From: a virus | UHGV virus genome: UHGV-0115522 | Length of the DNA stretch: 34,277 bases | Strand: one strand, 5' to 3' | Shown: positions 10,101-33,767 of the stretch, piece after piece | How the letters are laid out: every line of letters starts with the position of its first letter | Position numbering within the stretch: the stretch's first letter is position 1 | Notes under the pieces: generated by a model | What the model saw: only the letters and a program-made list of their open reading frames with translations | Told to the model about the DNA's origin: nothing | Databases searched by the model: none | Program-made: the position numbers and the translations under genes

Positions 10101-11200
10101 GCGTACTCCGGCAGGAAACGATAGGTGATCCGGCGATAGTACAGGTCCATGTCAGTACATACGCGGTCCATATCCCTGATTATTGAGAAGATCGGACGGG
10201 CTTTCTCGTGCTCAATCACTCCGTCTTCATCGACCGAGGTCGTTACGCCATTGTTGGCTTTGGCCACCGCTTCCGCCTGCTGGCGTAATTCTTCATACGC
10301 CGCCAGTTGTTCTTCAGTAAGTGGTGCATCCTGCTGGTGTTCGTCCAGTTCCGGGATCTCCACGGTATCCTTAACGTCTTCCGCCGTTTTAAGCGTTGTC
10401 CAGCGATGGAATATGCCGCGCAGCGCATCAAGGTTTTCAAAGCCCACCAGCGCCATTTTTTCTTCAACTTCACCGCTGATTTTCTGTACCGTTTCCAGCC
10501 TGGTCTTGCCGAAGAATTTAACGAAGTCATCAGGACCGTAGATCCCCATCTTCTGCCAGTATTCCTTCGGCAGCACATGAGAAAGCATGTTGTATGCATC
10601 GATCGGGGTGTTAACGACTGGCGTTGCAGTCAGGAGAACCGGTCCGCGCCCACCATTCTTTTTCATCAGGTACGCGTTTTTAATTGCCATATCCCGCGCC
10701 GATTGCGCCACCGCGCTGGTGGGCAGATAGGCCAGTTGTGACGCTTCGCGACCATTTTTATAGCTATTGCGGTAGTTGTGACCTTCGTCAGCGATCACAC
10801 TATCGAAGCCCATATCCTCAAAGTACGGATACTTCTCTGCTTTTTCGGTACCGGTATCTGAATACTCCGACAATACCCGGCGACGCGCGGCCTCTTTGCG
10901 GTGGGAGTCGGAGTCCATTGCGCTGGCTACGCGCCCGGCGGCAACGAAGTCATAAAGCATATCCTGTGCATGCTCATCTACGGTGTCATCACGTAGCGGA
11001 GTGCGGGCGTATTGTTCTTTGGTAAACACGACTGCACGGTAATTTGAGTGCGGGATCGCGTTCATCCGCGCCGTGATAGTGGCTTCATCTGCCAGTTTTA
11101 GGGCATCGCGCATAACTGGAGTGCCATCAGTACCAAGAACAGGAGCACCTCCCACGCTAACGCGCGGGCCCCGAATCTCACCGTTCTGAAACCACAACAA
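7175..11200 (-). CDS. DarB-like superfamily-2 helicase, apparently missing its 5' portion
   Basis: 1341-aa ORF with helicase motif II (VIADEGHNY), motif III (LLTATPVVN) and motif VI (QRNGRGARVG), but no Walker A (GxGKT) in the 135 aa before DEGH. Frame closes at 11207-11209 just upstream of a TTG start. Long C-terminal extension. Confidence 0.65.
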   Translation of the reverse strand: MLWFQNGEIRGPRVSVGGAPVLGTDGTPVMRDALKLADEATITARMNAIPHSNYRAVVFTKEQYARTPLRDDTVDEHAQDMLYDFVAAGRVASAMDSDSHRKEAARRRVLSEYSDTGTEKAEKYPYFEDMGFDSVIADEGHNYRNSYKNGREASQLAYLPTSAVAQSARDMAIKNAYLMKKNGGRGPVLLTATPVVNTPIDAYNMLSHVLPKEYWQKMGIYGPDDFVKFFGKTRLETVQKISGEVEEKMALVGFENLDALRGIFHRWTTLKTAEDVKDTVEIPELDEHQQDAPLTEEQLAAYEELRQQAEAVAKANNGVTTSVDEDGVIEHEKARPIFSIIRDMDRVCTDMDLYYRRITYRFLPEYADAVQQLADSLPKQATSEDDDSDDSITQQSQYSLIDKGEFIQLQVPEAFEQEVNKRLARFGIDEQTVTHPVTPKYAKLIATLKEFFPEGKQIIFTDEKTQHQKLKRIICNALNLEPSKVRILNAQTVAEAGKTGKKLKAVKPPKELPDEPTDAQIAKYNEQMALYDAYIAQQNEMSLGGLEKIAADFQEGRTPIIICNKKAEVGINLHRGTTDIHHLTLPWTPASVAQRNGRGARVGSNRASVRVHYYCGKGSFDEYRLKTLKRKAGWISDILRSDKSEMENADANDMIEMQMYTAKDDGERLAMMQVQMDKAKAAQRARQKEQAAIDLQNYIKAQHAAGEDVAALTAELERSKAELEKTTAEVAKFKQAVMAKAADNADWKARWGSVHHTDRTLLAHYRASLKSAIQRKANITQAISRYEKLLNRTQKAATDIKRLRPLVEDAINKGILDVDPDLVNHANEFLVIGDRSWRVGQYYDCAGDIVRIKSLDFDSQRADVEIIFTFKGTKSGNWDVKTLDKQVDVTPDEDAVMQKISGGVSIAGINDIISCDDFYRFQQRGMIKITDSYGVQTTESGYSIDFVGTYTDPLKHAVYQDRRDGALKSSIAKWVLGMMSEGNNRQVRLAEVFLTELFGSNYGEVIASYGDTLSPEAIQEKIADAIARMPEKTSQGATRNGDSELEVTNAIFGTHEFRASDYEITTAQFGTIGIYSNKDEIKQAMDAASARIAAERKANLNHAVAALTQSWVTAIREVATTGKITPAIADVVNDGSKFMDAYQMDAVQLPSAYGQLSYRMTYNLVSMFSDLAILGLVDLNEVTPELLSMRKNHVEILQRINTVLAGRTDEEKQADADRINLALGNITEEEIAARNEKQEELSSIQGDATSIAQSLGLNYRVSTADLKMMYAPKFAAGEVFGLQEASGMKGVLFRAKDAIKKKFGARWLPAKAKNSDFPGNWWIIETKHNVADVLAVIQQYA

Positions 11201-11209
11201 AAAAAATCA

Positions 11210-11720
11210 GGAATAAAAAACACCACACAAACACAGCACTGTACCCCCCCTCATAACTGAAAAGCGCCGCCGCCCCCGCCCGAAGGGCGGGAACAACATC
11301 GCTTTTAATTATGAATGTTGTAAGTACATTGTCATCGCTGTCAGTCTTCTGGCTGGAAGTCCTCAGTACACGCTCGTAAGCGGCCCTCACGGCCCGCTAA
11401 CGCGGAGATACGCCCCGACTTCGGGTACACCCTCGTCGGGACCACTCCGACCGCGCATAAAGGCTCTGTCATGGCTGAAAACGGGTATGGCTTAGCAGGG
11501 CCGGGGGTGGGTAAGGTGAAATCTATCAGTCAGTACCGGCTTACGCCGGGCTTCGGCGGTTTTACTCCGGTATCATATGAAACAACAGAGTGCCGCCTTC
11601 CATGCCGCTGGCGCGGCATCAGGACAATTGAAGAGTGACGGCGCACATTAACATCAAACAGACTTGTTAAGCAGTCTTTCAGGGTGTAATCTGAAGACCT
11701 GTTAAATAGTCTCAGAGGTG
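11210..11720. other. GC-rich, hairpin-dense noncoding segment at the darB break
   Basis: No convincing ORF. Perfect hairpin cccgccc-gaag-ggcggg (about 11276-11292), cccgac/gtcggg (about 11414-11440), atgccgc-tggc-gcggcat (about 11592-11609) and a near-palindrome cagtctttcag/ctgaagacctg just upstream of stbD. Confidence 0.3.
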
Positions 11721-11724
11721 TGTT

Positions 11725-11976
11725 ATGCCCAGTATCATTTTGTCTGACACCAGTGCAAGCGTCAGTGAGCTGAAAAAAAATCCGATGGCAACTGTCAGTG
11801 CCGGAGAGGGGTATCCTGTTGCCATTCTTAACCGGAATCAGCCAGCATTCTACTGTGTCCCTGCTGAGCTCTATGAAAGAATGCTTGATGCCTTGGATGA
11901 CCAGGAGCTGGTAAAACTGGTTACTGAACGCAGCAGTCAGCCTCTGCATGATGTGGACCTGGACAGTTATTTATGA
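11725..11976 (+). CDS. stbD: RelB/StbD-family antitoxin
   Basis: 83 aa (MPSIILSDTSASVSELKKNPMATVSAGEGYPVAILNRNQPAFYCVPAELYERMLDALDDQELVKL...) matches plasmid StbD antitoxins from memory; overlaps the toxin gene by 4 nt (ATGA). Confidence 0.85.
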   Translation: MPSIILSDTSASVSELKKNPMATVSAGEGYPVAILNRNQPAFYCVPAELYERMLDALDDQELVKLVTERSSQPLHDVDLDSYL

Positions 11977-12260
11977 CTTATACAGTAAAATTCCGGGATG
12001 ATGCACTGAAAGAATGGCTCAGACTGGACAAGACCATTCAGCAGCAGTTCGCAAAAAAACTGAAAAAATGCAGTGAAAATCCTCATATAGCTTCTGCAAA
12101 ACTACGTGGATTAAAGGACTGCTATAAAATCAAACTTCGCGCATCAGGTTTTCGTCTGGTTTATCAGATTATTGATGATATGTTAATTATTGCGGTCGTC
12201 GCAGTAGGTAAACGTGAACGCAGCAACGTTTATCATCTCGCCAGTGAACGGATGAAATAA
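11973..12260 (+). CDS. stbE: RelE/StbE-family toxin (mRNA interferase)
   Basis: 95 aa (MTYTVKFRDDALKEWLRLDKTIQQQFAKKLKKCSENPHIASAKLRGLKDCYKIKLRASGFRLVYQIIDDMLIIAVVAVGKRERSNVY) with RelE/ParE-fold hallmarks; coupled to the antitoxin. Confidence 0.85.
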   Translation: MTYTVKFRDDALKEWLRLDKTIQQQFAKKLKKCSENPHIASAKLRGLKDCYKIKLRASGFRLVYQIIDDMLIIAVVAVGKRERSNVYHLASERMK

Positions 12261-13119
12261 TATCCTGGTCAGCACTCTTTCTTACCTGCTTCCATTTTTT
12301 CAGTGATTCTTTTCCTGCATGCAGAAAAAAAGCCTACCCTGTGGGCAGGCATAACAGACAATCGCACAGTCAGTGTTGAAATTAATGATGTCACGCATTA
12401 TACCCGGTGGATACACAAACCATCCCTGCAAATGCATTGGCATCCTAATCAACGTCTGAAACAACTGCAATGGCCGGACCTGTGATTTCAGAGAAAGTTA
12501 TTATGTTTATTGAATATAACCGAAGTGATAAATAAAAGTATTATCACCTTTAATATTTATGCTTATTGCGTGGTTTTATCTGGTTATATAAAGCACAGAT
12601 GTTCTTATTATTTTCTGAAAAATAACCATATGGATCGATTTCCCCCACCCAGCCGAAGCGGTTCGGCTCGTTCGGCGTATCGTCGACACTGAAGCGCTTA
12701 TCCATTTCGTTCCAGCGGTAAGAGTTGTCGCTGTCGCTGACGAATGCCATCGGGTCGCTAAACAGCGTGATCCGCCATGCGATCAAAAAGCGTAAGTGTT
12801 TCCGACAGACGAGCCGGTGAAAAAAGTGGTGTGTCTGGCAATACAGGCATCGTCCCCGAAATGGACGATGCCGTTGAAGGACTGGGGTATGGCAATAAGC
12901 CGCTTTATTATCGGATTCAGTGACCGCCTGGACGGTTACTTTTGAGAAAAGGCATTTACACACAATCCTAAACAGACTCCTATATTTCAGATTTTGTTAT
13001 CAACGCATTTCAAATCTCTTAGAAATCATTACTGTCGTCATATTTTCCGAGGCAGCTCACCACCTAACTATGTCTTATCAACAATATTTTGTGAAGGATA
13101 TTTATAATGTAAAGACACA

Positions 13120-16100
13120 TCAGAAACGATATTCCACACTCAACATGGCAGATGTATTATGGTATCCATGTTCTCCAAGTTGAATGCCTGCATCAGCCCG
13201 GAATGCTACTTCTGGTGTTATCATTCCCACAACACCACCATTTATTTCTCCGATATCACGCGCACCATCCTGGTATATACTTACACCATTCATACTGGTG
13301 CCGAAAACACGACTATTGTGCAACCAGTGTGCCTCCACAAATGGTCTGAACGGAACCGCATACCGCGTATTTTTACCGTTTTTGCTGGTAAGCCATGTTC
13401 TTGCTCCCAGGCGGGTGAGAATATTTCCGTTACCGGTATTTTCAATACTGGTTCCGTTACTTTCATGATATTTGTCTGATTTTACATTCATCCGGACAAC
13501 CTGAAGCTGCGGCTGAACATACCATTCATGACTTCCCTTGTAATTGTCGGTAAACTCTCCAGCCTTCCATGAATATCCTGCTTCCAGAGATACCGTAAAC
13601 CCTTTTGACTTCCATGACTCAGCAGGCAGCCGTTCTCCATTTATATGATTATCAAACCAGCTGTATTGCAGCCAGCTATCAAGATAAGAACCATTGTGTG
13701 TTTCATCATTGGCATACCATGTTGCATAAAGACCCGCTGTGTATCCATTCATTCTTCCTTCCGAATGGTATCCGGTGCTCAGGGCATTCGTACTGTTATT
13801 ATTATGACCATAGCCAGCCATCATACCTGTATGCCAGCGATCGGTACCATTCAGGCTCCACTGAGCTATATCTCCCCCTATTAACACAACGTAGCTATTC
13901 CCCCGGGTTCTCAGCTGACTACTGTTGTCACGCCAGCGATTATGTTTTCCTTTATTATACATCCAGATACCTGCTTCATTTTCTTCTCCTGTCATGTGGC
14001 TGATATACAACTCCTGTCCCTGTCGTTCATACAGATTCGTTACAAACAGATTATTTGCAGCAGCAATACTGGCAACATAGCTACCTGCCTCAGGACGCAA
14101 ATTATTATCATGGCTTTCCGGTACAGCTTCAGGTTGTGGTACAGGAATGTCTTTTCTGCTAATCAGATACCAGTTAGTGCTGTTAATCCCCTGACCACGT
14201 TTCAGTATGTAATCATAAGCTCCGGCTGTAATACGTTCCGTCTGAATGAATTCAGCATTATCAGCATTGCCACTGACGTGAATCACTTCAATCCCATTAA
14301 GTGTCTCTGCACCAGTACCACCGGCCTGAGTAACAGCGACACGGGTACGGCCACTGGCATTACCTTTAATCACCAGACGATCTGTTTTCGAATTGTCACC
14401 ACCTGTTTCTGTCTGGAGGAGAATAAGTCCATTTCTGCCAGTGTAATTCCCTCCGACAGTCAGTATATTACCCGGCATATATGTAGTGAGATCGACTATA
14501 CCACTATTGCTCAGATTTCCTGCAACGCCCCCAAACCCGGAGAGTTTGCCCTGCTCTTCAACAATGACCTGGTTACTGCCGAGCATCACCGGTGAATCTG
14601 CGTTCCCCAGTATCACTGTCCCCTGAATAATATCTGTCATCCCGGTCCATTTTGCGTTATCGCTAATGTTCAGTGCACCTGCTCCCGTCTTGCGAACATT
14701 ACCATAACCACTGATATTGTTGGTAAGCTGCCATGCTGATGTACTGTTCAGAGTTAATGTGCCATAGTTATCAACAAAGGCTGTCCCCAGATTATCAGCC
14801 GTGGATACAGCCAAATGAGCCCCCTTATTCACGGTAAAAACACCGGAAAAATTACGATTATTACCCGTTATATCAAGCATTCCCCCATTTATGTTCAGAG
14901 AACCATCCCCTGCAATAGTACCTGCAGATTCTCCTCCATTATTCAGTATCAGGCTTCCGCCATGAATGTTCAGCACAGAGCCTGCAGCCGTCAGTAGTTT
15001 GCTTATTGTCTGAGGATACCCATTCATATCCAGTTCTGCGCCACGGGATAAATATAAATACTCAGTCCGACCAAGAGCATCAGGTGCAGCAAGAATTAAT
15101 ACGCCAGATTTAACCTCTGTATTTCCTGTATAATTGTTTGTTGCAGAAAGTATAAGAGTACCATTACCTGATTTTGTCAGACTTTTGCCGTCCCAGCCAT
15201 CATATAATAAAGGTGAAAGATTATCGGAAAGAGAAACGCCTATGTTCAGAGTGGCATCTTTTTCTATATTAAAGGTTCCATATCCCATCCCTTTTGTATT
15301 ATTCCATCTCAGCATGGATATCAGTTTGTTATCGTCGTCATTTAAAGACGTATAAACATAACTTTCAGCACCTTCTGTCAGTAATGCATTGTATTGTACA
15401 ATGTGACTATTATCAGCGATCGAGATACCTGTGTCTGACGACAATAATGTGTAATAGTCCTGAGTCCAGTTCTTAATTGATGTGTCTATATTAAGCCATG
15501 AATCACTTTTTAATGTAATAGTATTTGCGTGAACATTAGCATTTCCTACAGACAGGTTCATAGATGCGTCTTCATCAATACTTATATTTCCGTTAAAAAT
15601 GGAGTTCTTGCCTGACAGATAAACAGATGAGCCATTCCCAATCATTAGCCCACCATTAATTGCTGTTGCGTTATTGATGTTTTTAATAATTAATTCATTT
15701 GTACCATTAACAGGTATACTAGCTAGTTTAATATCACCATTAATCACAGAATCTGAATAAATATCTAATGAATTATACCCGCCAGAAAAAATTATTGATG
15801 TATTATAAGCATCTTTTTGGCTATTATATAATCCTGAAAGATTACCATGATTACTAATATGGATATCTTCTCCATAAACAGAGCAACCACCGTCGGGGCC
15901 ATATCCCCCCTGAACAATACCGTTATTATTCAAAGTGATTTGATTTCCAGAAATAGCATCTCCCCCTTGTTTTATTCCATATCCTCCAGATATCATGTTG
16001 CCGTTAGTAATGAAAAGATTACTACCATTAATACCATCACCACCGTTTACGCCATTACCGCCCAATATTCCTCCGGAATTATGCACTGTAATATTGCTAC

Positions 16101-16617
16101 CGGTTACACCGGAACCACCTGTCCCACCTACATCATCACCTCCGTATATACTTCTGTAATTATCAACTATAATATCATCCCCGCTTAACCCTGCACCTCC
16201 GCTACTTCCTGAGCCACCAAGACCATTACCCCCATATACATTTCTGTAATTGTTTATAGATATTTTGTTGCCACTAACAGCAATTCCACCATTATATCCA
16301 TCGCCTCCCCAAACACTACCATTATTATTTAGCGTAAAGTTTTCACCGTAGACACCTGCACCACCGATTGATGTATTGCTTGTTCCTCCTTTGATGTTAA
16401 TACTGCTTTCAACAGATAGTATATTTTGAGTATAACTTGTTTTATACGGCACGCTGATATTAAGCGCCGCGTTTCCATCAACACCTGTAATACTCCTGGT
16501 TATACTTTCAGGTATACCATTACCATTCAGTTGTATTGTTTGCGCACCAGAAAAATGAGACTGCACAGAATAAATTATACTGACCAGAAATTGTAAAATT
16601 CGTATATTCTTATTCAT
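13120..16617 (-). CDS. Autotransporter (type Va) with AIDA/pertactin-like glycine-rich passenger and C-terminal beta-barrel
   Basis: 1165 aa. N-terminal signal peptide (MNKNIRILQFLVSIIYSVQSHFSGAQT), long passenger with reiterated GG-x-G-x-NG-type repeats, and a C-terminus ending ...SAMLSVEYRF typical of outer-membrane barrel closure. AT-rich. Confidence 0.85.
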   Translation of the reverse strand: MNKNIRILQFLVSIIYSVQSHFSGAQTIQLNGNGIPESITRSITGVDGNAALNISVPYKTSYTQNILSVESSINIKGGTSNTSIGGAGVYGENFTLNNNGSVWGGDGYNGGIAVSGNKISINNYRNVYGGNGLGGSGSSGGAGLSGDDIIVDNYRSIYGGDDVGGTGGSGVTGSNITVHNSGGILGGNGVNGGDGINGSNLFITNGNMISGGYGIKQGGDAISGNQITLNNNGIVQGGYGPDGGCSVYGEDIHISNHGNLSGLYNSQKDAYNTSIIFSGGYNSLDIYSDSVINGDIKLASIPVNGTNELIIKNINNATAINGGLMIGNGSSVYLSGKNSIFNGNISIDEDASMNLSVGNANVHANTITLKSDSWLNIDTSIKNWTQDYYTLLSSDTGISIADNSHIVQYNALLTEGAESYVYTSLNDDDNKLISMLRWNNTKGMGYGTFNIEKDATLNIGVSLSDNLSPLLYDGWDGKSLTKSGNGTLILSATNNYTGNTEVKSGVLILAAPDALGRTEYLYLSRGAELDMNGYPQTISKLLTAAGSVLNIHGGSLILNNGGESAGTIAGDGSLNINGGMLDITGNNRNFSGVFTVNKGAHLAVSTADNLGTAFVDNYGTLTLNSTSAWQLTNNISGYGNVRKTGAGALNISDNAKWTGMTDIIQGTVILGNADSPVMLGSNQVIVEEQGKLSGFGGVAGNLSNSGIVDLTTYMPGNILTVGGNYTGRNGLILLQTETGGDNSKTDRLVIKGNASGRTRVAVTQAGGTGAETLNGIEVIHVSGNADNAEFIQTERITAGAYDYILKRGQGINSTNWYLISRKDIPVPQPEAVPESHDNNLRPEAGSYVASIAAANNLFVTNLYERQGQELYISHMTGEENEAGIWMYNKGKHNRWRDNSSQLRTRGNSYVVLIGGDIAQWSLNGTDRWHTGMMAGYGHNNNSTNALSTGYHSEGRMNGYTAGLYATWYANDETHNGSYLDSWLQYSWFDNHINGERLPAESWKSKGFTVSLEAGYSWKAGEFTDNYKGSHEWYVQPQLQVVRMNVKSDKYHESNGTSIENTGNGNILTRLGARTWLTSKNGKNTRYAVPFRPFVEAHWLHNSRVFGTSMNGVSIYQDGARDIGEINGGVVGMITPEVAFRADAGIQLGEHGYHNTSAMLSVEYRF

Positions 16618-17201
16618 ACTGTTTTTTCTTTAGTGATGCATTTTTTATCAACCATACAAGCACATTATTTCATTGATACTAATCACATCAGGATGAATGT
16701 TTTTTCTCAATAGAAATAAGTGTCTTTATTTCTTACCAATTTATTCTGGTTATTCCTCTTATCCAGACGTCTCGTGATACTCCCTGTATTTATTATAGAG
16801 TATATATATGTACTGCGTTTAAATCATGAAGACGACAACCTGTTTTACATAAATTATTCCTAAGTATTTTTCCAGAGAAGACCTAGGTATAATGATGTGC
16901 ACTGTCTGGTTTTCTTACAACTGACTTAGCGATCTGCATATCCGTGATAACGCCTGAATAAATAGGACGAGAGAACTCTTAACCAAATAATCTAACACTT
17001 TTAATCGACAGGAATTAAAAACCCGGGGAGGTTAAAAAAACACAAAAAAATGGATGTTTATTCAACTCTGGTTACGTACCATGAGGACTGCATCCACAAT
17101 GCACCGGCAATTAAATGGCTTTCATTGATTGATTTTTTATATCTGTGATGATTTTTTGCTCCATTCCTCAAAAAATGGACGCAACTTCCCCTCTGCGGCT
17201 C

Positions 17202-17555
17202 TCAGCTGTATACCCGCTGTCGTGCCAGTGGCTCATGCATCATGACCAGCTCTGCCAGACGGTAGCCCCGCTTCAGCCCCGTAAACCGCATCTGACCTCC
17301 GCACAGGATGCACTTCAGCGGGTCAACCTTCAGTAACCGCTGATACACCCTTCTCCGCCTGATTTGCATCGCCGTTTTTCTCTCCGTTTCTGTTATGACG
17401 TACACAACATTTTCCAGTAACCGGCGCTTCACCGGACTCAGGAACCCGTTGTCAACGCCACGATGTTTGACCGTTCTGGGGATGCGGACGATTTCCTGGA
17501 CTGCTTTATCATTCCAGCCCGCATTGTTGGCGGTACATTTTGGGGCTGACTGCAC
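17202..17555 (-). CDS. C-terminal fragment of an unidentified gene cut by the adjacent IS (possible transposase remnant)
   Basis: 117-aa ORF whose 5' end overlaps the end of the IS3-family transposase. Contains CILCGG; family not recognised. Confidence 0.25.
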   Translation of the reverse strand: MQSAPKCTANNAGWNDKAVQEIVRIPRTVKHRGVDNGFLSPVKRRLLENVVYVITETERKTAMQIRRRRVYQRLLKVDPLKCILCGGQMRFTGLKRGYRLAELVMMHEPLARQRVYS

Positions 17556-19043
17556 CCGGCGATAATTTTATACGCCGCTCGTTATACCATCTGATGTAAG
17601 TATCCACTTGCTGCATGAACTTTTCTGGCGTGATGCCCGACCATTTACGCCCATAATACATTTCCGTTTTCAGTCTGCCGAAAAAGCCTTCGCATGCCGC
17701 ATTATCAGGTGAACATCCTTTGCGGGACATTGAGCGAATAAGACCTTCTGCATTCACTCTTTCCAGCCAGCCTGACCAGCGATAATGCCCACCTCTGTCA
17801 CTGTGTATCACCGGTCGTTCACCAGCATTTAACGTTTCGACAGCGCTATCCAGCATAGTGTTGACCAGTTCAGCATCGGGGCGTGTACTGAGAGACCAGC
17901 TCACAACTTTTCCATCGAAGCAGTCCACCACCGATGATAGCCAGACTTTACCTGCAGGGAGGTGGAACTCCGTGATATCTGTCAGCTATTTCTGATTAGG
18001 TTGCTCCGCCTTAAAATCTCTGGCGATAAGGTTATCCGGAGCCGGTCCGATTTCTCCGCAATATGAGCTGTAGCGGCGACGACGGTTACGGCTGACGACA
18101 AGCTGTTCTTCCACCATAAGTCTGCGTACAACCTTTTCTGATAGCCGCCCCCCCCCTCATGCCTGAGCATCGCATGCAGGCGACGATAGCCATAACACTG
18201 GTAATTACTGTTAAATATATCTGTCAGCATCGTACGTATCGTGGCGTATTTATCACCGGCTTTCAGTGCAGCCCGGTGATAAAAATAACTGCTACGGGCA
18301 AGGCCCAGAACATGCAGTAATTCTGTCAGGGGATATGTTTGTCTCAGGGCATCAGCGATCTTCGTTTTCTCTCTGTTGTTCAGGTGACTGATACTGATGC
18401 CCGGGTCTTTTTTTATGATTTCCTCCGCCTTTTTCAGAATATCCAGCTCCATCTGCCGGCGGCGTATTTCCTGATTCAGTCGGGCGACTTCCTCCCGCAA
18501 CGCATCGCGTTCTGCCTCCAGGGAAGGTTCGTTATGTTTACGCATAGTCTGGTAAGCACTGTTGCCGATAATTTTATCTTTCCATTTATACAATACCGCA
18601 CGACTGACACCAATACGCCTGGCGATTTCACTGGCTGATACTTGTCGTGTACAGAGTGCCATGACAGCCTGACGTTTGACTTCTGGTTCAAAGGGCGCAA
18701 CCGGGTTGGCCTTACTGGTAAATATACGTCGTCTGTCGGGATAAAGTTCATTAACCCAGCGAGCGAGTACATCAGTGCAGGGATAACCCAGGGCTCTGCT
18801 GGTAAACGCCAGGCAGCAGCCGTGGTTAAGATAATGTTCAACGGCAACCTGTTTTTGCTCATCGGAGTAACGGTGCTTATGACGAATGGATTCTTTTGCG
18901 CCACCACCTGCTTCCCATGAGCGGATCCAACGCCGCAGATTTCTTTTCGAAGGGTAGCCCAGTTCGCGTACGACGGGAGCCAGCTTCTTACCATATTTGA
19001 AATAAAGCTCAATGGCGCGGATTTTTTCTTCTTCAGTAAACAT
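17509..19043 (-). pseudogene. IS3-family transposase (OrfA-OrfB), disrupted
   Basis: ORF 17982-19043 has two HTH modules plus the OrfB N-terminus; ORF 17509-17931 has the DDE-integrase C-terminal part (HSDRGGHY...SPDNAACEGFF...WYNERR) in another frame. A 9-nt C homopolymer (18148-18156, G9 on the coding strand) lies in between. Confidence 0.65.
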
Positions 19044-19095
19044 GTTTTATCTCCTGAGAGTCCAGGAAATCGTCCGCATCCCCATTTACCGTCTT
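17509..19095 (-). mobile_element. IS3-family insertion sequence, degraded
   Basis: Boundaries approximate, set from the extent of the transposase ORFs and the start of the adjacent IS911-like element. Confidence 0.5.
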
Positions 19096-19108
19096 ATATC
19101 TGTAGTGG

Positions 19109-21229
<2,121 letters not shown>

Positions 21230-21492
21230 GTAGCCTTTTTTAATATTTCATTTTCCATTTCAATACGTTGTAGCTTTTTCCTGAGCTCACGGATTTCAAT
21301 TTGTTCCGGGGTAATGGGGGAGGCTTTTGGTGTTTTTCCCTGCCGCTCATCACGTAATTGTTTCACCCATCGCGTCATTGTGGAAAGGCCGACATCCATA
21401 GCGCTGGCTGCATCTGCCACGGTGTAATTCTGGTCAACGACCAGTTGAGCGGATTCGCGTTTAAACTCTGCGCTGAAATTTCTTTTTTTCAT
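21230..21492 (-). pseudogene. IS911-like OrfA, interrupted by IS30 near its 3' end
   Basis: Starts [88 protein letters not shown], then runs into IS30. Removing IS30 and one GT copy restores ...[16 protein letters not shown]-stop using 19955-20008. Confidence 0.8.
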
Positions 21493-21676
21493 TATGGCAC
21501 CTGTGTTGTTCTGAGGTGAGCATATCACCTCTGTTCAGGTGGCCAAATTCAGTAAACCACTTCAGAGGGAAACGTTCAAAAGCAACCGCCGGGAAAATGA
21601 AGGCTGAAGGGCAGAAAAAAGGTTACCCGATGTTAAAGAACGTGAGGTCAGAGACGGCGTTCTGTGCTTCCGTCGT

Positions 21677-22021: not shown

Positions 22022-22695
22022 TGGCACCAACAATTTATCACCGTATCGACGGTACCAAATACAGGAATATCTGGGTTGTTGGTGATCTGCATGGTTGCTA
22101 CACCAGACTGATGTCCGAACTCCATCGTGTGGATTTTGACCCTGCGCAGGATTTACTGATATCGGTCGGCGACCTTATCGATCGCGGCACCGAAAATGTT
22201 AAATGCTTGGAGCTATTGCAGATGCCATGGTTCAGAGCGGTTATGGGCAACCATGAGCGGCTGATGATTGATGCGTTAAGTCCTGATGGCAACGTGAATA
22301 ATTGGCTAATGAATGGCGGTCAATGGTTCTTCATGCTGGACGCTGATCAGGAAATATTAGCCAGGGCGCTGGTGGAGTTGGTAAGACGACTGCCCTATAT
22401 CATTGAGTTGAACACCGGGCAAGAAACTATCGTTATAGCCCATGCCGACTATCCGGATAATGAATATCAATTCGGTAAGGAGGTGCCGCTTTTCAACGTT
22501 GTCTGGGCGCGCGAGCGTATCAGTGATTCGATGGATGATATTGGTGGCGAAATTTCGGGCGCAGATCGTTTTATCTTTGGTCACACTCCGGTGAAAAGCC
22601 CGAAGACATTCTGGAATCAGCATTATATCGACACTGGTGCCGTATTTTGCGGAAACCTGACATTGATGAAAGTGAAAGGTGATGGTGCAGCATGA
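22003..22695 (+). CDS. ppp: Ser/Thr protein phosphatase, lambda-phosphatase/PrpA-like metallophosphoesterase
   Basis: Motifs GDLHG, GDLIDRG, GNHE and C-terminal GHTP in PPP-family order. True start may be ATG 22018 or 22021. ppp is the P1 gene name as I recall it. Confidence 0.8.
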
Positions 22696-23393
22696 AGATT
22701 GCTTTAGTTCTTCGCTCTGGTGGTGACTATAACGCTTCCGATGTGCAGTGGCTGGTTAATCAACTGCCAAAAGGCTATGAAATTATTTGCCTGACAGACC
22801 TGAAGCGTTTACATGTACCTGGCGTCAAAGTTGTCCCATTGATCAACCAGTGGCAAAAGTGCCGTGGCTGGTGGACGAAAATCGAGTTGTTCCGACCGGA
22901 TATAACAGATGATCTGTTCTATCTGGATTTGGACACAGTTATTGCCGGTGATATACGCCCAATCCTTGAGAATCCACCAACCAGCTTCACCATGCTTAGG
23001 GATTTTTACCATCCACAATATCGTGGTAGCGGTGCCCTGTGGATACCAAATAGTGTAAAAGCGCATATCTGGAGTTCATTCTGGCAAGATCCGGAAGGTT
23101 GGATTTCTCGTTGTGTCACTACTGAGTGCTGGGGTGACCAGGGGTTCTTACGAAAGGTTATGGGCGATGATACACCAGCATTTCAGGATCTGTATCCAGG
23201 ATGGTTTGTAAGTTACAAGGCCGATGTTGTGGAACCTGGTTCAAAATATGCGAGCGCGCGTTACTCCAGGGGGAATGGGGCATTACCAAAAGACTGCCGA
23301 ATAATCTTTTTCCACGGCAAACCGCGACCTCGCGAAGTGTCAGAGGATTGGCTTCCCCTTATCAGCTCATTTTTTGAGCGAGAATCAGAATAA
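22692..23393 (+). CDS. Hypothetical protein with a possible GT-A-like DxD motif
   Basis: 233 aa, start overlaps the phosphatase stop (ATGA). A hydrophobic strand followed by LDLD ([14 protein letters not shown]) resembles the DxD motif of GT-A glycosyltransferases. Weak inference. Confidence 0.6.
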
Positions 23394-23394
23394 T

Positions 23395-23411
23395 ATTGCT
23401 CTAATAATTTC
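23395..23411 (+). promoter_or_regulatory. C1 operator-like site
   Basis: ATTGCTCTAATAATTTC (15/17), beginning 2 nt after the stop of the preceding gene. Confidence 0.7.
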
Positions 23412-23420
23412 ATATTTTTA

Positions 23421-23449
23421 AAACGTGATGTACACTCATCACGTTTTTT
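23421..23449. terminator. Symmetric hairpin with A/T runs on both sides (possible bidirectional terminator)
   Basis: aaacgtgatg-tacact-catcacgttt (10-bp stem) with T-runs on both flanks, between two oppositely oriented operator-like sites. Confidence 0.5.
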
Positions 23450-23460
23450 ATTAGAGCAAT
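23444..23460 (-). promoter_or_regulatory. C1 operator-like site
   Basis: Reverse complement ATTGCTCTAATAAAAAA (14/17); inverted relative to the site at 23395-23411. Confidence 0.65.
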
Positions 23461-23474
23461 CTACAAGGTGCGCT

Positions 23475-23693
23475 ATGTGGCCATTCCGACGGAAATATCA
23501 CTACTGGCTGATCGCCTTTGTTACGCCGACCGGCGGTATCAGGCATGTAATCACCAGGTATCGCAACAAGAGACTCACCTTAGCCAGAATTTTACAGGCT
23601 GCCATAGGTGAGGGACTGGATACAAATTGCGTAGTCCTTCCACCTTCATACTTAGGAAAAATGACCGAAGCACAAGCTAATACGGAACTTTGA
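23475..23693 (+). CDS. Small hypothetical protein, first gene after the operator pair
   Basis: 72-aa ORF with AAGG 7 nt upstream of ATG; ends 1 nt before the next gene. Confidence 0.45.
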   Translation: MWPFRRKYHYWLIAFVTPTGGIRHVITRYRNKRLTLARILQAAIGEGLDTNCVVLPPSYLGKMTEAQANTEL

Positions 23694-23694
23694 A

Positions 23695-24957
23695 ATGAGC
23701 ACTTCAGCACAAAACCAATCAATCGAAAATGTATCTATCCCTGACGTCCTGAATGCCGGTATCCCAGCCATTATCCAGAACATCCGGGCCGCGCAACGCC
23801 GCGTTAGTTGTGATGACCTCACAGCGCGTTTTTTTGATAATGCGGTTCAGTCAGCGGAGATGCTTCACGCACAGCTTATTGATGTTTATAACGCAGAAGC
23901 TGATAGCCATAACTCCCTGGTAGATGCAGCTGAAAATATGCAGTTGGATCTCGGTCTGAAGGGTAAAGAAATTGAAGAGCTTCAGCTACAAATTGAACAT
24001 TTGAAACGCCAGCAACAGGACGCGATCGACGATGCGACGCATGACGCCAACCAGCGTGCTGATAATGCCGAACGTATAAGCATTGAGCTGGAAACAAAAC
24101 TCAATGAAATGACCGCGATGGTTGAACTGCGGAACTCACAGATTTCAACGCTAAAATCTCAATATAAAGAGATCATGAAACTTGATCCTTTTAACCTTGA
24201 GAAACGCTATAACAAAGCTAAAAGCGAGCGACAGGAACTGCGTAAGCAGGTCGCCGATCTTAACCAACAGCTCAAAAAAACTATTAAAGATGCAAGCGAA
24301 GCGCGCGTGGCATTTGCTAATAAAAAAGCAGAGGTTACCGCGCTGGTTAATGAGAATGCCAAATTTGCGACGCTCAAGAAGGAAATGTATGGCATTACTG
24401 AGCGCCGTTTCCCTGCAAGCAAACTTCATCCGACGTTAGGGCAAATCTCCTTCTTCCCGCGCCTCCTGGCTTATGGGATCTCATCGCCTAAAGAGTTCAA
24501 TAACGAGCGTCCTTATATCGTTTCTAAGCTGGACTTTGCTTATCAGTTCTGCTGCGACATGGGCTATGCCATTGATATCCGAATCAACGAATGGTTGATG
24601 CCAAACTTCCAGCCGCTGGCCATTTTCCGCGAGTTCCAGCCGGAAGGTTGGGTAGAGTTCTTCCATGAATTGATCTGTAAAGAGATGGAAAGCCGCCGCC
24701 CGGAACTGGTCCGCCGTGTCGAGTGGGCGCAAGAGGTTATGTTGGCAGATGCAGAGCTGCCGTTCGAACCGGAATTTATTGATGATCTGGCAGCTAAAGG
24801 GCTGCATACCCTGTTTGATGTGGTTACCCGCCGTCATGAGCAGTTGGTTGTCGAATTGGGTTTAGAGGAAACAGCGGCAAGAAGACTTCTCGATGTTTGC
24901 TATGCACGTAGCGATGCATGGGAAAAAGAGAACGGCGGCACTATTTACGTTCGCTGA
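23695..24957 (+). CDS. Hypothetical protein with a long coiled-coil-like central region
   Basis: 420 aa; central about 200 residues are rich in E/K/Q/L heptad-like sequence. No catalytic motif recognised. Confidence 0.7.
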   Translation: MSTSAQNQSIENVSIPDVLNAGIPAIIQNIRAAQRRVSCDDLTARFFDNAVQSAEMLHAQLIDVYNAEADSHNSLVDAAENMQLDLGLKGKEIEELQLQIEHLKRQQQDAIDDATHDANQRADNAERISIELETKLNEMTAMVELRNSQISTLKSQYKEIMKLDPFNLEKRYNKAKSERQELRKQVADLNQQLKKTIKDASEARVAFANKKAEVTALVNENAKFATLKKEMYGITERRFPASKLHPTLGQISFFPRLLAYGISSPKEFNNERPYIVSKLDFAYQFCCDMGYAIDIRINEWLMPNFQPLAIFREFQPEGWVEFFHELICKEMESRRPELVRRVEWAQEVMLADAELPFEPEFIDDLAAKGLHTLFDVVTRRHEQLVVELGLEETAARRLLDVCYARSDAWEKENGGTIYVR

Positions 24958-25029: not shown

Positions 25030-25536
25030 TTGAGTATTTTCAATAAACACGCACACCAGGAACGTCCGTATATCGTCATAGTTGATATTGATGGAACAAT
25101 ATCAGAGGCAACTGAAGACAGACTGCATTTGCTTCCGCCACCAGGTAAAGGTGCATTAACAAAGGACTGGAACGAGTTTAATCTCGCCTGTGACACTGAT
25201 ACTCCCATAACTCCAGTTATTGATATTGTGCGCCAGTTATTTAACGTTTACACGGTCTGGTTTGTAACCGGGCGCTGTGAGATCGCAAGGGATAAAACAC
25301 GAGCCTGGCTGCGGAAGTACGTAACAAACGGGGCTGAGCCTTTGCTATCTATGCGTCCTGCCACCGATGACAGAAATGACGGCCCAGCAAAGATTGATCT
25401 CCTTAAGAAAATTGGTCTAAGTAAAATCGCGTTCGCGCTGGAAGATAAGATTGAAGTGGCGCGTGTTTTCAGGAGGCACGGCGTGCTTACGTTAATGGTC
25501 AGGGAGTATGAAAACGCGCTTCTCCATCAACAATAA
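25030..25536 (+). CDS. HAD-superfamily phosphatase-like protein
   Basis: 168 aa; N-terminal VIVDIDGTI fits the HAD motif I (DxDGT). TTG start with GGAGGG upstream. Confidence 0.6.
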   Translation: MSIFNKHAHQERPYIVIVDIDGTISEATEDRLHLLPPPGKGALTKDWNEFNLACDTDTPITPVIDIVRQLFNVYTVWFVTGRCEIARDKTRAWLRKYVTNGAEPLLSMRPATDDRNDGPAKIDLLKKIGLSKIAFALEDKIEVARVFRRHGVLTLMVREYENALLHQQ

Positions 25537-25552
25537 TTGCTCTAATAAATAT
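25536..25552 (+). promoter_or_regulatory. C1 operator-like site
   Basis: ATTGCTCTAATAAATAT (16/17), overlapping the stop of the HAD-like gene. Confidence 0.75.
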
Positions 25553-25634
25553 TGATTTTTAAAACAGAGAAAGTGAAAATAAAAACATGCCGCAAGGCGC
25601 GGCATGTATCCAATCAATCACAGGAGCTGAAAAT

Positions 25635-32915: not shown

Positions 32916-33767
32916 TTATTGCGCGCTTTCGGGGTTGTCGTTTACTGGCTGCCCCTTCTTGGTTTTACGGCTGCGCGTAACTGATGCGGCTGACTTAACC
33001 TTTTTCTCTTCGCGAGTGATGGCAATTTGTTTTTTTACATTTTCAATATCTGCCAGGCGATATATTTTTGCTTGTGGCCAGCGGTCGCAGATGATCGGTT
33101 CTATGGAGTCATAAAGGCTAAATTTTGCTTTCTCGAATTCACCGTTGATGATGATTCCATCACGGAGAGTTTCATCGCAGATAAACACGCCACACAGCGG
33201 CACATGGTAACTAACTGATTTACCGTTATTGTAGTTAGGACTACTGGAGATGTAGTGAACGCGCAGCATTGTTTCGCTAAAGCCGTGTACGCGCATACGG
33301 AATTTTTCATCCTCCGGGTACTGCTTCATTAGCTCTTTTGTTGCTTCCAGGTTCTCTATGTATTTCGCACTGTGCTCATTGAACCCCGCGCTTTTTTGGA
33401 TGCGAATGTCCTTATCAATCAGATGAATAATGCGGCCAGCGGTCATGTTGACGCTGTTTACAGCTTCTGTCTGATAGGTCGTAACCTTACGCACACCGCG
33501 AAGGATGTTAGGCACAGGATATAAAATAGTCTTTGGGATATTGAGGTCTGGGTACTGTTCCAGTTCCCGCGCCATTAAAGTCCATTTATCAATTTCAGCC
33601 TGAATGCTGTCCGTTTCTTTGAACGGCAGAACGACAACCGGGCGTACAGGACGACCGTCGCTGGCGGCATCAACGTGTTGGGCGCGTGCAACAGCTTTTT
33701 TTAGAAAGAGATCCCTGAAGCTGACGAACTCCTGGTACAGTTGTTCGCCGTAGACATAATTTATCAT
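32916..33767 (-). CDS. c1: C1 repressor of lysis
   Basis: 283-aa translation (MINYVYGEQLYQEFVSFRDLFLKKAVARAQHVDAASDGRPVRPVVVLPFKETDSIQAEIDKW...) matches P1 C1 from memory, and cognate operator-like sites recur across the window. Confidence 0.9.
   Translation of the reverse strand: MINYVYGEQLYQEFVSFRDLFLKKAVARAQHVDAASDGRPVRPVVVLPFKETDSIQAEIDKWTLMARELEQYPDLNIPKTILYPVPNILRGVRKVTTYQTEAVNSVNMTAGRIIHLIDKDIRIQKSAGFNEHSAKYIENLEATKELMKQYPEDEKFRMRVHGFSETMLRVHYISSSPNYNNGKSVSYHVPLCGVFICDETLRDGIIINGEFEKAKFSLYDSIEPIICDRWPQAKIYRLADIENVKKQIAITREEKKVKSAASVTRSRKTKKGQPVNDNPESAQ

Follow-up and report, generated by a model that had tools for sequence, protein, structure and literature searches.

In the virus genome UHGV-0115522, two blocks of genes that are read in the same direction are separated by a 66-bp segment (23395–23460) holding two inverted repeats, one inside the other. 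The question raised by this locus is whether so short a piece of DNA may end the transcription of the first block and, under the control of a repressor, allow transcription to start again for the second. A reading of the letters alone had proposed such a combination, with a symmetric terminator hairpin lying between two operator-like sites. This original prediction is followed up here by a computational analysis of the whole stretch of DNA (34,277 nucleotides, referred to as the window) and of related sequences.

The junction and its flanking genes

A 901-bp stretch around the junction displays 99.2% identity to phage P7 and 98.9% identity to phage P1, and by sequence comparison the window is a P1/P7-type element. 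The 66 bp, with the full sequence ATTGCTCTAATAATTTCATATTTTTAAAACGTGATGTACACTCATCACGTTTTTTATTAGAGCAAT, thereby match the Op86a-PpmgR-Op86b junction of P1/P7, which is already known and reads as ordinary phage gene control. In P1 (AF234172 / NC_005856, 82152–82217) the counterpart is annotated as the operators OpmgRa and OpmgRb (formerly Op86a and Op86b) together with the predicted promoter PpmgR, and in P7 (AF503408, 84533–84598) as Op(sht[a]) and Op(sht[b]). The flanking genes, both 17-bp operator sequences, their orientation and their spacing are the same in the P1/P7 locus and in the window; the tail of the left operator differs from P1 by one base (TTTC in the window versus TTCC). The region is present in 687 plasmids of PLSDB and in about 20 phage records, nearly all of them with an identity of at least 94%. 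The features next to the junction are the following:

22692–23393, plus strand: pmgQ (P1) / hdmD (P7), last gene of the upstream block (open reading frame list, P1/P7 annotation)
23465–23470, plus strand: Shine-Dalgarno-like AAGGTG for pmgR, 4 nt ahead of the ATG at 23475 (from the sequence)
23475–23693, plus strand: pmgR / shtA, 72 aa, first downstream gene (open reading frame list, P1/P7 annotation; PHROG 3177)
23695–24957, plus strand: pmgS / shtB, 420 aa, second downstream gene (PHROG 'PmgS-like head morphogenesis')

The pmgQ/hdmD reading frame encodes 233 aa, ends with a TAA at 23391–23393, and its product matches the PHROG 'glycosyltransferase' (E = 1.8e-127). Deletion analysis places pmgR among the essential genes (PMC10695390). 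The 66-bp module begins 1 nt past the pmgQ/hdmD stop codon and ends 14 nt ahead of the pmgR/shtA ATG, and its proposed placement right after one operon and before the next is thus borne out.

Beyond the junction, the window departs from a simple P1 genome. Its wider layout is as follows:

43–858: methyl-accepting chemotaxis signalling domain
1240–1273: loxP, followed by cre
about 11.1–21.6 kb: IS transposases and an autotransporter
from 21565: P1-like block containing the junction resumes
32916–33767, minus strand: c1, gene of the repressor expected at both operators

A segment corresponding to P1 79180–80380, which adjoins the IS elements and comprises Op83, PpmgN, pmgN, pmgO and the 5′ part of pmgP, is absent here; therefore, the upstream genes ppp and pmgQ lack the C1-controlled promoter that they usually have. 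The Op86 module is intact. The c1 product (283 aa) is identical to P1 C1.100 in 280 of 283 residues (99%).

The two C1 operators

The outer inverted repeat detected by the repeat finder is complementary in 13 of 13 positions, with the arms ATTGCTCTAATAA (23395–23407) and TTATTAGAGCAAT (23448–23460). Both arms carry an exact copy of the 13-nt core of the C1 operator consensus, an asymmetric 17-bp sequence, ATTGCTCTAATAAATTT, against which both sites were scored:

23395–23411, plus strand: left C1 operator ATTGCTCTAATAATTTC (P1 OpmgRa = Op86a; P7 Op(sht[a])), 15 of 17 consensus positions
23444–23460, minus strand: right C1 operator ATTGCTCTAATAAAAAA (P1 OpmgRb = Op86b; P7 Op(sht[b])), 14 of 17 consensus positions

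The two sites are convergent and lie 49 bp apart, centre to centre. Both are marked as protein_bind 'phage repressor C1' in AF234172 and AF503408; the P1 record describes OpmgRa as a 'monovalent C1-controlled operator' that 'controls expression of pmgR and pmgS', and the P7 record refers to the sht operon. The original prediction of two operator-like sites in opposite orientation is confirmed by these matches and annotations. The same asymmetric consensus has been quoted for the 22 C1 operators dispersed over the P1 genome (PMC8546580). Within the 34-kb window, 7 C1-like sites are found at a maximum of 3 mismatches, compared with 0.2 expected, and none of 100 shuffled sequences reaches 7.

The core of the left operator is invariant across 11 aligned lineages. 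The tail of the right operator reads AAAAA on the operator strand versus AATTT in the consensus; it is weakly conserved and overlapped by a run of six T. The notes on Op68 and Op88 in the P1 record cite separately deposited sequence fragments and those on Op86a/b cite none; therefore, both sites of the junction may be sequence predictions only. A literature search outside the P1 genome paper (Lobocka et al. 2004) found no direct report on C1 binding to Op86a/b or on a start site at the P1 junction, and no term-seq or 3′-end report for P1.

Expression at the junction

Published RNA-seq data of P1vir, obtained from P1 and not from this element, list log fold changes per gene (PMC8201110, Table S1). 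At 10 min in the wild-type host, pmgO to pmgQ are at 6.9–7.4 (pmgQ 7.0), pmgR is at 9.0 and pmgS at 10.0; in a dksA host, the respective values are 6.1–6.6, 9.0 and 9.1 (PMC8201110). This amounts to a 4- to 8-fold step-up at the boundary of pmgQ and pmgR at 10 min, in gene-level values that are not length-normalised coverage and cannot show termination. The signal of pmgR is higher although the gene has one third of the length of pmgQ. Units behind known C1 operators display 10-min values of 8.3 (ref), 10.0 (ant1), 8.5 (kilA) and 8.6–9.4 (uhr-hrdC-dmt), and late genes values of about 3–5 (PMC8201110); pmgR and pmgS thus group with the C1-controlled early units. At 30 min, both sides of the junction are near 11–12 (PMC8201110). 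The data support an independent, early-firing promoter at the junction. Together with the annotated operators, the predicted sigma-70 promoter and a c1 gene at 99% identity, the rise in RNA-seq signal lends support to the repressor-controlled restart that had been proposed for this site.

Anatomy of the hairpin

The inner inverted repeat is complementary in 11 of 11 positions (repeat finder) and is followed directly by a T-run:

23420–23447, plus strand: hairpin, with the 5′ arm AAAACGTGATG (23420–23430), the 6-nt loop TACACT (23431–23436) and the 3′ arm CATCACGTTTT (23437–23447)
23444–23449, plus strand: T6 run, U-tract of the proposed plus-strand terminator (T5–T6 in all lineages)

The core of the hairpin (23424–23430 paired with 23437–23443) comprises 7 bp with 4 G-C pairs, and is continued by 4 A-T pairs. 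RNA folding of 23385–23470 yields −26.9 kcal/mol (z = −6.9), and the inner hairpin alone −13.4 kcal/mol (z = −5.5), with none of 200 shuffled sequences folding as well. The stem is co-directional with pmgQ and starts 26 nt past its stop codon. A stem of at least 5 bp with G-C pairs, a loop of 3–8 nt and a U-rich tract, the sequence criteria for intrinsic terminators, are all found here. The hairpin and its U-tract most likely constitute an intrinsic terminator that ends the upstream operon, as judged from these sequence features; with only 4 G-C pairs in the core stem, termination may be partial.

The hairpin had been described as a 10-bp stem, symmetric, with T-runs on both sides and exactly centred between the operators. 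Its presence stands, but the stem measures 11 bp. It is also off centre, with 12 nt to the left 13-mer versus 0 nt to the right 13-mer. T-runs do occur on both sides but are unequal, namely T6 on the plus strand versus only TTTT, followed by AAAAA, on the minus strand.

With a simple terminator scanner, the hairpin is called on the plus strand in lineage L127 and goes uncalled in the window, in Cronobacter phage JK004 and in lineage L128. The miss is probably due to greedy extension of the stem, which consumes four of the six T. The GenBank records of P1 and P7 list no terminator feature at the junction; the P1 record is without terminator features anywhere in 58.5–85.2 kb, so that the absence at the junction is uninformative. 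The sole Rfam match, to a miRNA-precursor family (20 bits versus a gathering score of 211), was rejected as spurious.

Conservation across lineages

Diverged junctions were collected from Cronobacter phage JK004, a Salmonella plasmid, contigs with PmgR homologues (72–84% identity) and one metagenome contig. The length of the module is identical in 12 lineages, and its order is constant: left operator, about 8 A/T-rich bases, hairpin, T5–6, and the inverted right operator. The stem itself has turned over. The window and P1 share CGTGATG/CATCACG; in the Salmonella types two pairs are exchanged with full compensation, giving CATGGTG/CACCATG; JK004, L126 and L131 carry CATGGTG/CGCCATG with a U-G wobble; and L128 has GCGTGGTG/CACCATGC. 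In L127 the stem is re-registered, with 11 bp, a higher G/C content and a 3-nt loop, and it is here that the scanner calls its plus-strand terminator.

In an alignment of 11 sequences, 96.7% of the cells of the inner helix are paired, and every unpaired cell stems from L127. Three inner pairs are changed on both sides. One-sided changes occur at 6 columns and always lead to G-U or U-G on the plus strand and to C-A on the minus strand; outside L127, the reverse type of change does not occur. Since these wobbles are valid pairs on the plus strand only, the strands differ in their behaviour. The plus-strand hairpin has −11.1 to −16.5 kcal/mol in all lineages, and the minus-strand hairpin is reduced to −5.8 to −11.0 kcal/mol in 6 diverged lineages. 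The tail on the minus strand has few or no T in JK004, L126, L127 and L128.

This pattern argues for selection on the plus-strand transcript, as a one-directional intrinsic terminator for the operon on the pmgQ side would require, in a comparison that comprises few independent substitution events (roughly 5–8). In very close variants of the P1 type, no strand bias is seen among single substitutions of the stem (roughly 4 compatible with the plus strand versus 3 with the minus strand), and several of them break a pair; therefore, the argument from strand asymmetry rests on the deeper lineages only. Hence, the terminator half of the original proposal gains support from a hairpin and T-run kept in 12 lineages, from compensatory and wobble changes, and from one re-registered stem, and its symmetry does not, as the comparative evidence points to a function on the plus strand only.

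A search with PmgS in species-representative genomes returned just two near-identical loci, and a relaxed operator-pair pattern yielded no further lineage in the viral collection; one match to this pattern (L142) was discarded as a chance AT-rich hit. In a single metagenome scan, L151 proved to be a genuine JK004-like locus, and six further matches were due to chance.

Alternative explanations for the repeats

The alternative that survives best, improbable as we consider it, is that the junction consists only of an operator, a promoter and a second operator, and that the hairpin is a stability element at the 3′ end of the upstream mRNA or a tolerated by-product. The short stem with 4 G-C pairs in its core, the lack of a scanner call in the window, the similar gene-level RNA-seq values on both sides at 30 min and the stem mismatches in some natural P1-type variants would fit this explanation. 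However, hairpin and T5–6 are kept in all lineages despite the turnover of the stem, and the stem of L127 is stronger and called as a terminator. Moreover, the T-run deviates from the operator consensus in the direction of a U-tract, and even a stability hairpin would be expected chiefly at an RNA 3′ end produced by termination or processing.

Considerably less probable is a role of the outer 13-bp repeat as RNA, instead of or besides its role as operators, for example as an RNase III site in read-through transcripts that form a duplex of about 24 bp. The region of 66 nt does fold as nested helices, with the low free energy given above (−26.9 kcal/mol, z = −6.9), and one outer pair is changed on both sides in L126 and L128, where both arms read GTTC in place of GCTC. 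Yet the equivalent of Op88, located 2 kb downstream and unpaired, likewise carries GTTC in these lineages. Because the equivalents of Op86a, Op86b and Op88 all share it, the change is a lineage-wide operator variant of a diverged Salmonella lineage. The same outer pair is a C-A mismatch in L135 and U-G in L131, and 7 of 11 lineages do not form the terminal outer pair. In addition, the 13-mer is the core of the dispersed C1 operators, and a working terminator would rarely leave the 3′ outer arm on the same RNA. In its sequence variation, the outer repeat behaves like a pair of protein sites rather than an RNA stem.

A terminator acting symmetrically on both strands, to which the equal −13.4 kcal/mol on each strand in the window and P1 and the A-run ahead of the hairpin would point, is hardly tenable, given that no convergent minus-strand gene exists at the site, that the minus-strand tail is poor in T in the lineages named above, and that the minus-strand hairpin is weakened in the 6 diverged lineages by one-sided substitutions, all of which are G-U on the plus strand and C-A on the minus strand. 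It is just as hard to maintain that a second DNA-binding protein, acting as a dimer, recognises the inner 11-bp palindrome through co-evolving half-sites, since the two-sided changes (G-C to A-T, A-T to G-C) do keep the palindromic symmetry, but the one-sided changes at 6 columns render the half-sites unequal while all of them keep plus-strand RNA pairing, L127 shifts register and sequence and retains hairpin and T-run, and no such palindrome is found in the Citrobacter relative described below.

Position of the promoter

Two promoters may be read at the junction, and both of these predictions fall between or within the two operators:

23396–23424, plus strand: PpmgR as predicted in the P1 record, with −35 TTGCTC (23396–23401, in the left operator) and −10 TAAAAC (23419–23424)
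23409–23436, plus strand: alternative promoter, with −35-like TTCATA (23409–23414), a 16-bp spacer and −10-like TACACT (23431–23436), which is the loop of the hairpin

The annotated hexamer TAAAAC is without a T at −7 in every lineage. In JK004, L126, L127 and L128 it becomes TGAAGC or TGCGGC and also loses the A at −11. The loop hexamer reads TACACT, TATCAT or TATTAT and keeps A(−11) and T(−7) in 12 of 12 lineages, with TATCAT retained in L127 despite the shifted register of the stem. In every lineage, the loop promoter scores 7–9 of 12 consensus positions versus 4–7 of 12 for the annotated one. In the window it reaches 8 of 12 with a weak −35 hexamer, which is under the threshold of the promoter scanner. 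The −35-like hexamer is TTTACT in JK004, L126, L127 and L128 versus TTCATA in the window, and the scanner calls TTTACT, a 16-bp spacer and TATCAT or TATTAT in JK004, L127 and L128, where the orthologous sites score 9 of 12.

This data suggests that the annotated TAAAAC is probably not the real −10 element. We lean slightly towards the loop of the hairpin as the −10 of PpmgR, which would place the promoter inside the terminator. On the other side, the P1 lineage carries ATTTTTAAAAC after both Op86a and Op88 at an equal offset, and this shared sequence could mean that TAAAAC is used as −10 there. Transcription would be expected to start at about 23443 (± 2) from a −10 in the loop, and at about 23431 from TAAAAC. 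The promoter's own transcripts could not form the complete hairpin and would escape termination, because either −10 starts them within or after the 5′ arm; this escape holds whichever −10 is correct.

Two further candidates were set aside. A minus-strand promoter (ATGATA, 18-bp spacer, TAAAAT) called by the scanner in JK004 and L127 is not conserved in the window or P1 and has no minus-strand gene downstream. An Lpa-dependent late promoter is not annotated at the junction in P1, though such promoters are annotated elsewhere in the record.

Proposed mechanism

Based on this dataset, we consider it likely that two C1 sites flank the promoter of pmgR and pmgS, with a plus-strand terminator between them and the −10 element in the loop of its hairpin. 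This model is built on what is observed, namely the anatomy of the junction, its identity with annotated features, the presence of c1, the strand-asymmetric covariation and the step in RNA-seq signal; occupancy of both sites by C1, actual termination and the exact start site are what we infer from it. With a start at about 23443, the left operator would extend from about −48 to −32, overlapping the −35 hexamer, and the right operator from about +2 to +18.

In a lysogen, C1 would occupy both sites and, at either flank, exclude or trap RNA polymerase, so that pmgR and pmgS would be off, and transcription arriving from upstream would stop at the hairpin and U-tract. Upon infection or induction, with C1 absent or inactivated, the promoter would fire early. 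In the lytic cycle, RNA from the upstream operon (in P1, pmgL/pmgN to pmgQ) would still end at the T-run, and transcripts of pmgR and pmgS, which would begin beyond the 5′ arm, would not be terminated.

A more elaborate version is doubtful but may be worth stating: a nested 'insulator-switch', in which the −10 lies in the loop and RNA polymerase is held up at the terminator by C1, sitting as a roadblock on the right operator. The right operator begins inside the U-tract. If this version were true, termination of upstream read-through would be enhanced by the repressor in lysogens and leakier in lytic growth, one 66-bp element would couple repression, insulation and restart, and the −10 assignment in P1 would be corrected.

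Significance

P1 has long served as a model phage, and phage-plasmids of the P1 type are common in Enterobacteriaceae. The junction displays a terminator, a promoter and two repressor sites overlaid within 66 bp of a compact phage genome, as far as these elements can be read from the sequence. No new kind of system is revealed. The probable additions made here are a one-directional terminator that is absent from the P1 and P7 records and the reassignment of the −10 element to the loop. If confirmed, they would set right a promoter annotation that is twenty years old and add a terminator, and they would aid the reading of P1 transcriptomes and of polar effects in CRISPRi screens as well as the engineering of P1 vectors.

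Comparison with known systems

The junction resembles the P1 operators Obanab (Op72a/b, at the ban promoter) and Oc1ab (Op99a/b, at c1), in that two convergent asymmetric C1 17-mers are combined with one promoter, the −35 of which lies in or beside the left site. However, the 17-mers of Obanab and Oc1ab overlap by 6 bp at an offset of 11 bp and form a near-palindromic site of 28 bp, whereas the sites of the junction are 49 bp apart, have between them a hairpin, a T-run and, probably, the −10 element, and are labelled 'monovalent' in the P1 record. The junction thus stands outside the structural class of the bivalent Op72ab and Op99ab, and may nevertheless act like a two-site operator.

With canonical intrinsic terminators, the junction shares the stem-loop with its 6-nt loop, the direct T5–6 run, the co-directional gene upstream and an upstream A-run able to pair with the U-tract. 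It differs from them by a short and only moderately G/C-rich stem, by the overlap with a repressor site and by what appears to be a −10 element in the loop.

A distant P1-like relative, the Citrobacter freundii plasmid pRHBSTW-00697_3 (NZ_CP056338), has an inverted pair of the motif ACCATACTAATT upstream of a PmgR homologue (35% identity). This motif occurs 15 times there versus 3.7 expected, mostly just upstream of genes, and its difference from the C1 operator suggests a different immunity specificity. The Citrobacter pair encloses a TATCAT hexamer, one of the sequences that the hairpin loop takes among the lineages; it differs from the junction by a distance of 32 bp from centre to centre and by having no internal hairpin or T-run. 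Judged from these sequences, the terminator hairpin is an addition within the group of P1, JK004 and the Salmonella types, and the arrangement of two operators at this promoter is old.

Mosaic composition of the element

The left end of the window carries an open reading frame with a methyl-accepting chemotaxis signalling domain (43-858, + strand; Pfam MCPsignal, E = 2.5e-44), which directly adjoins the P1 lox region. Several E. coli plasmids of 70-190 kb have this junction too, so the window derives from a mosaic plasmid rather than from an intact P1 genome. Non-P1 cargo occupies about 11143-21565, between a fragment of darB and a 65-bp piece of pmgM, and includes the following features:

13120-16617, - strand, autotransporter of 1165 aa
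17982-19043, - strand, IS transposase open reading frame
19109-19954, - strand, IS transposase open reading frame
20016-21167, - strand, IS transposase open reading frame
21124-21528, - strand, IS transposase open reading frame

Comparison with P1 places a deletion of P1 79180-80380 at 21565-21630 of the window. The deleted segment contains the operator Op83/Oppp, the promoter PpmgN, and the genes pmgN and pmgO together with the 5' portion of pmgP, so that the ppp-pmgQ genes are here without their normal C1-controlled promoter. These are the genes upstream of the Op86a-PpmgR-Op86b module at 23395-23460.

C1 operator-like sites and neighbouring repeats

The lox-cre region holds a pair of sites resembling the operator of the P1-type repressor C1, which match the 17-bp consensus at 16/17 and 15/17 positions. 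They are divergent, lie 83 bp apart and are located just upstream of loxP:

1098-1114, - strand, C1 operator-like site
1181-1197, + strand, C1 operator-like site
1240-1273, perfect loxP site, ATAACTTCGTATAGCATACATTATACGAAGTTAT
1685-2716, Cre-type tyrosine recombinase of 343 aa, after loxP

The 3' end of pmgQ contains a short inverted repeat (GCTCA-TTTTT-TGAGC, 23365-23379) that sits 16 nt before the left operator of the module, and P1 has this repeat too. Further downstream, the operator Op88 (25536-25552) is followed by the same ATTTTTAAAAC as Op86a, at an identical offset. Next comes a GC-rich hairpin at 25585-25607, which is predicted by a simple terminator scan to act as a - strand terminator with the tail TTTTATTTTC, yet the genes annotated there are on the + strand.

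Operator variation in relatives

In a P1-type copy of the module (L136, GCA_045575315.1 contig), the core of the right operator upstream of the pmgR homologue carries a 1-nt insertion (TTATTAGAAACAAT). PmgR of L136 has 70 aa, and the downstream genes differ. This copy may have undergone natural degradation. A diverged P1-like lineage (L138, Salmonella contig ABACHN010000013.1) yielded four operators (6275, 9920, 9973 and 12061), each with GT[TA]C in place of P1 GCTC or GCAC. This is a lineage-wide shift of the operator sequence, and it may be paired with a change in the C1 protein of this lineage. A distant P1-like plasmid of Citrobacter freundii (L139, NZ_CP056338.1) contains a dispersed operator-like motif of its own, A-x-x-ATACTAATT, with 15 hits versus 3.7 expected (for example at 13922, 22540, 23750, 25607, 45621, 47627 and 49239/49271). 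Most copies are located just upstream of genes. This suggests that the plasmid has a heteroimmune repressor system of the C1 type, with a related core, CTAAT.
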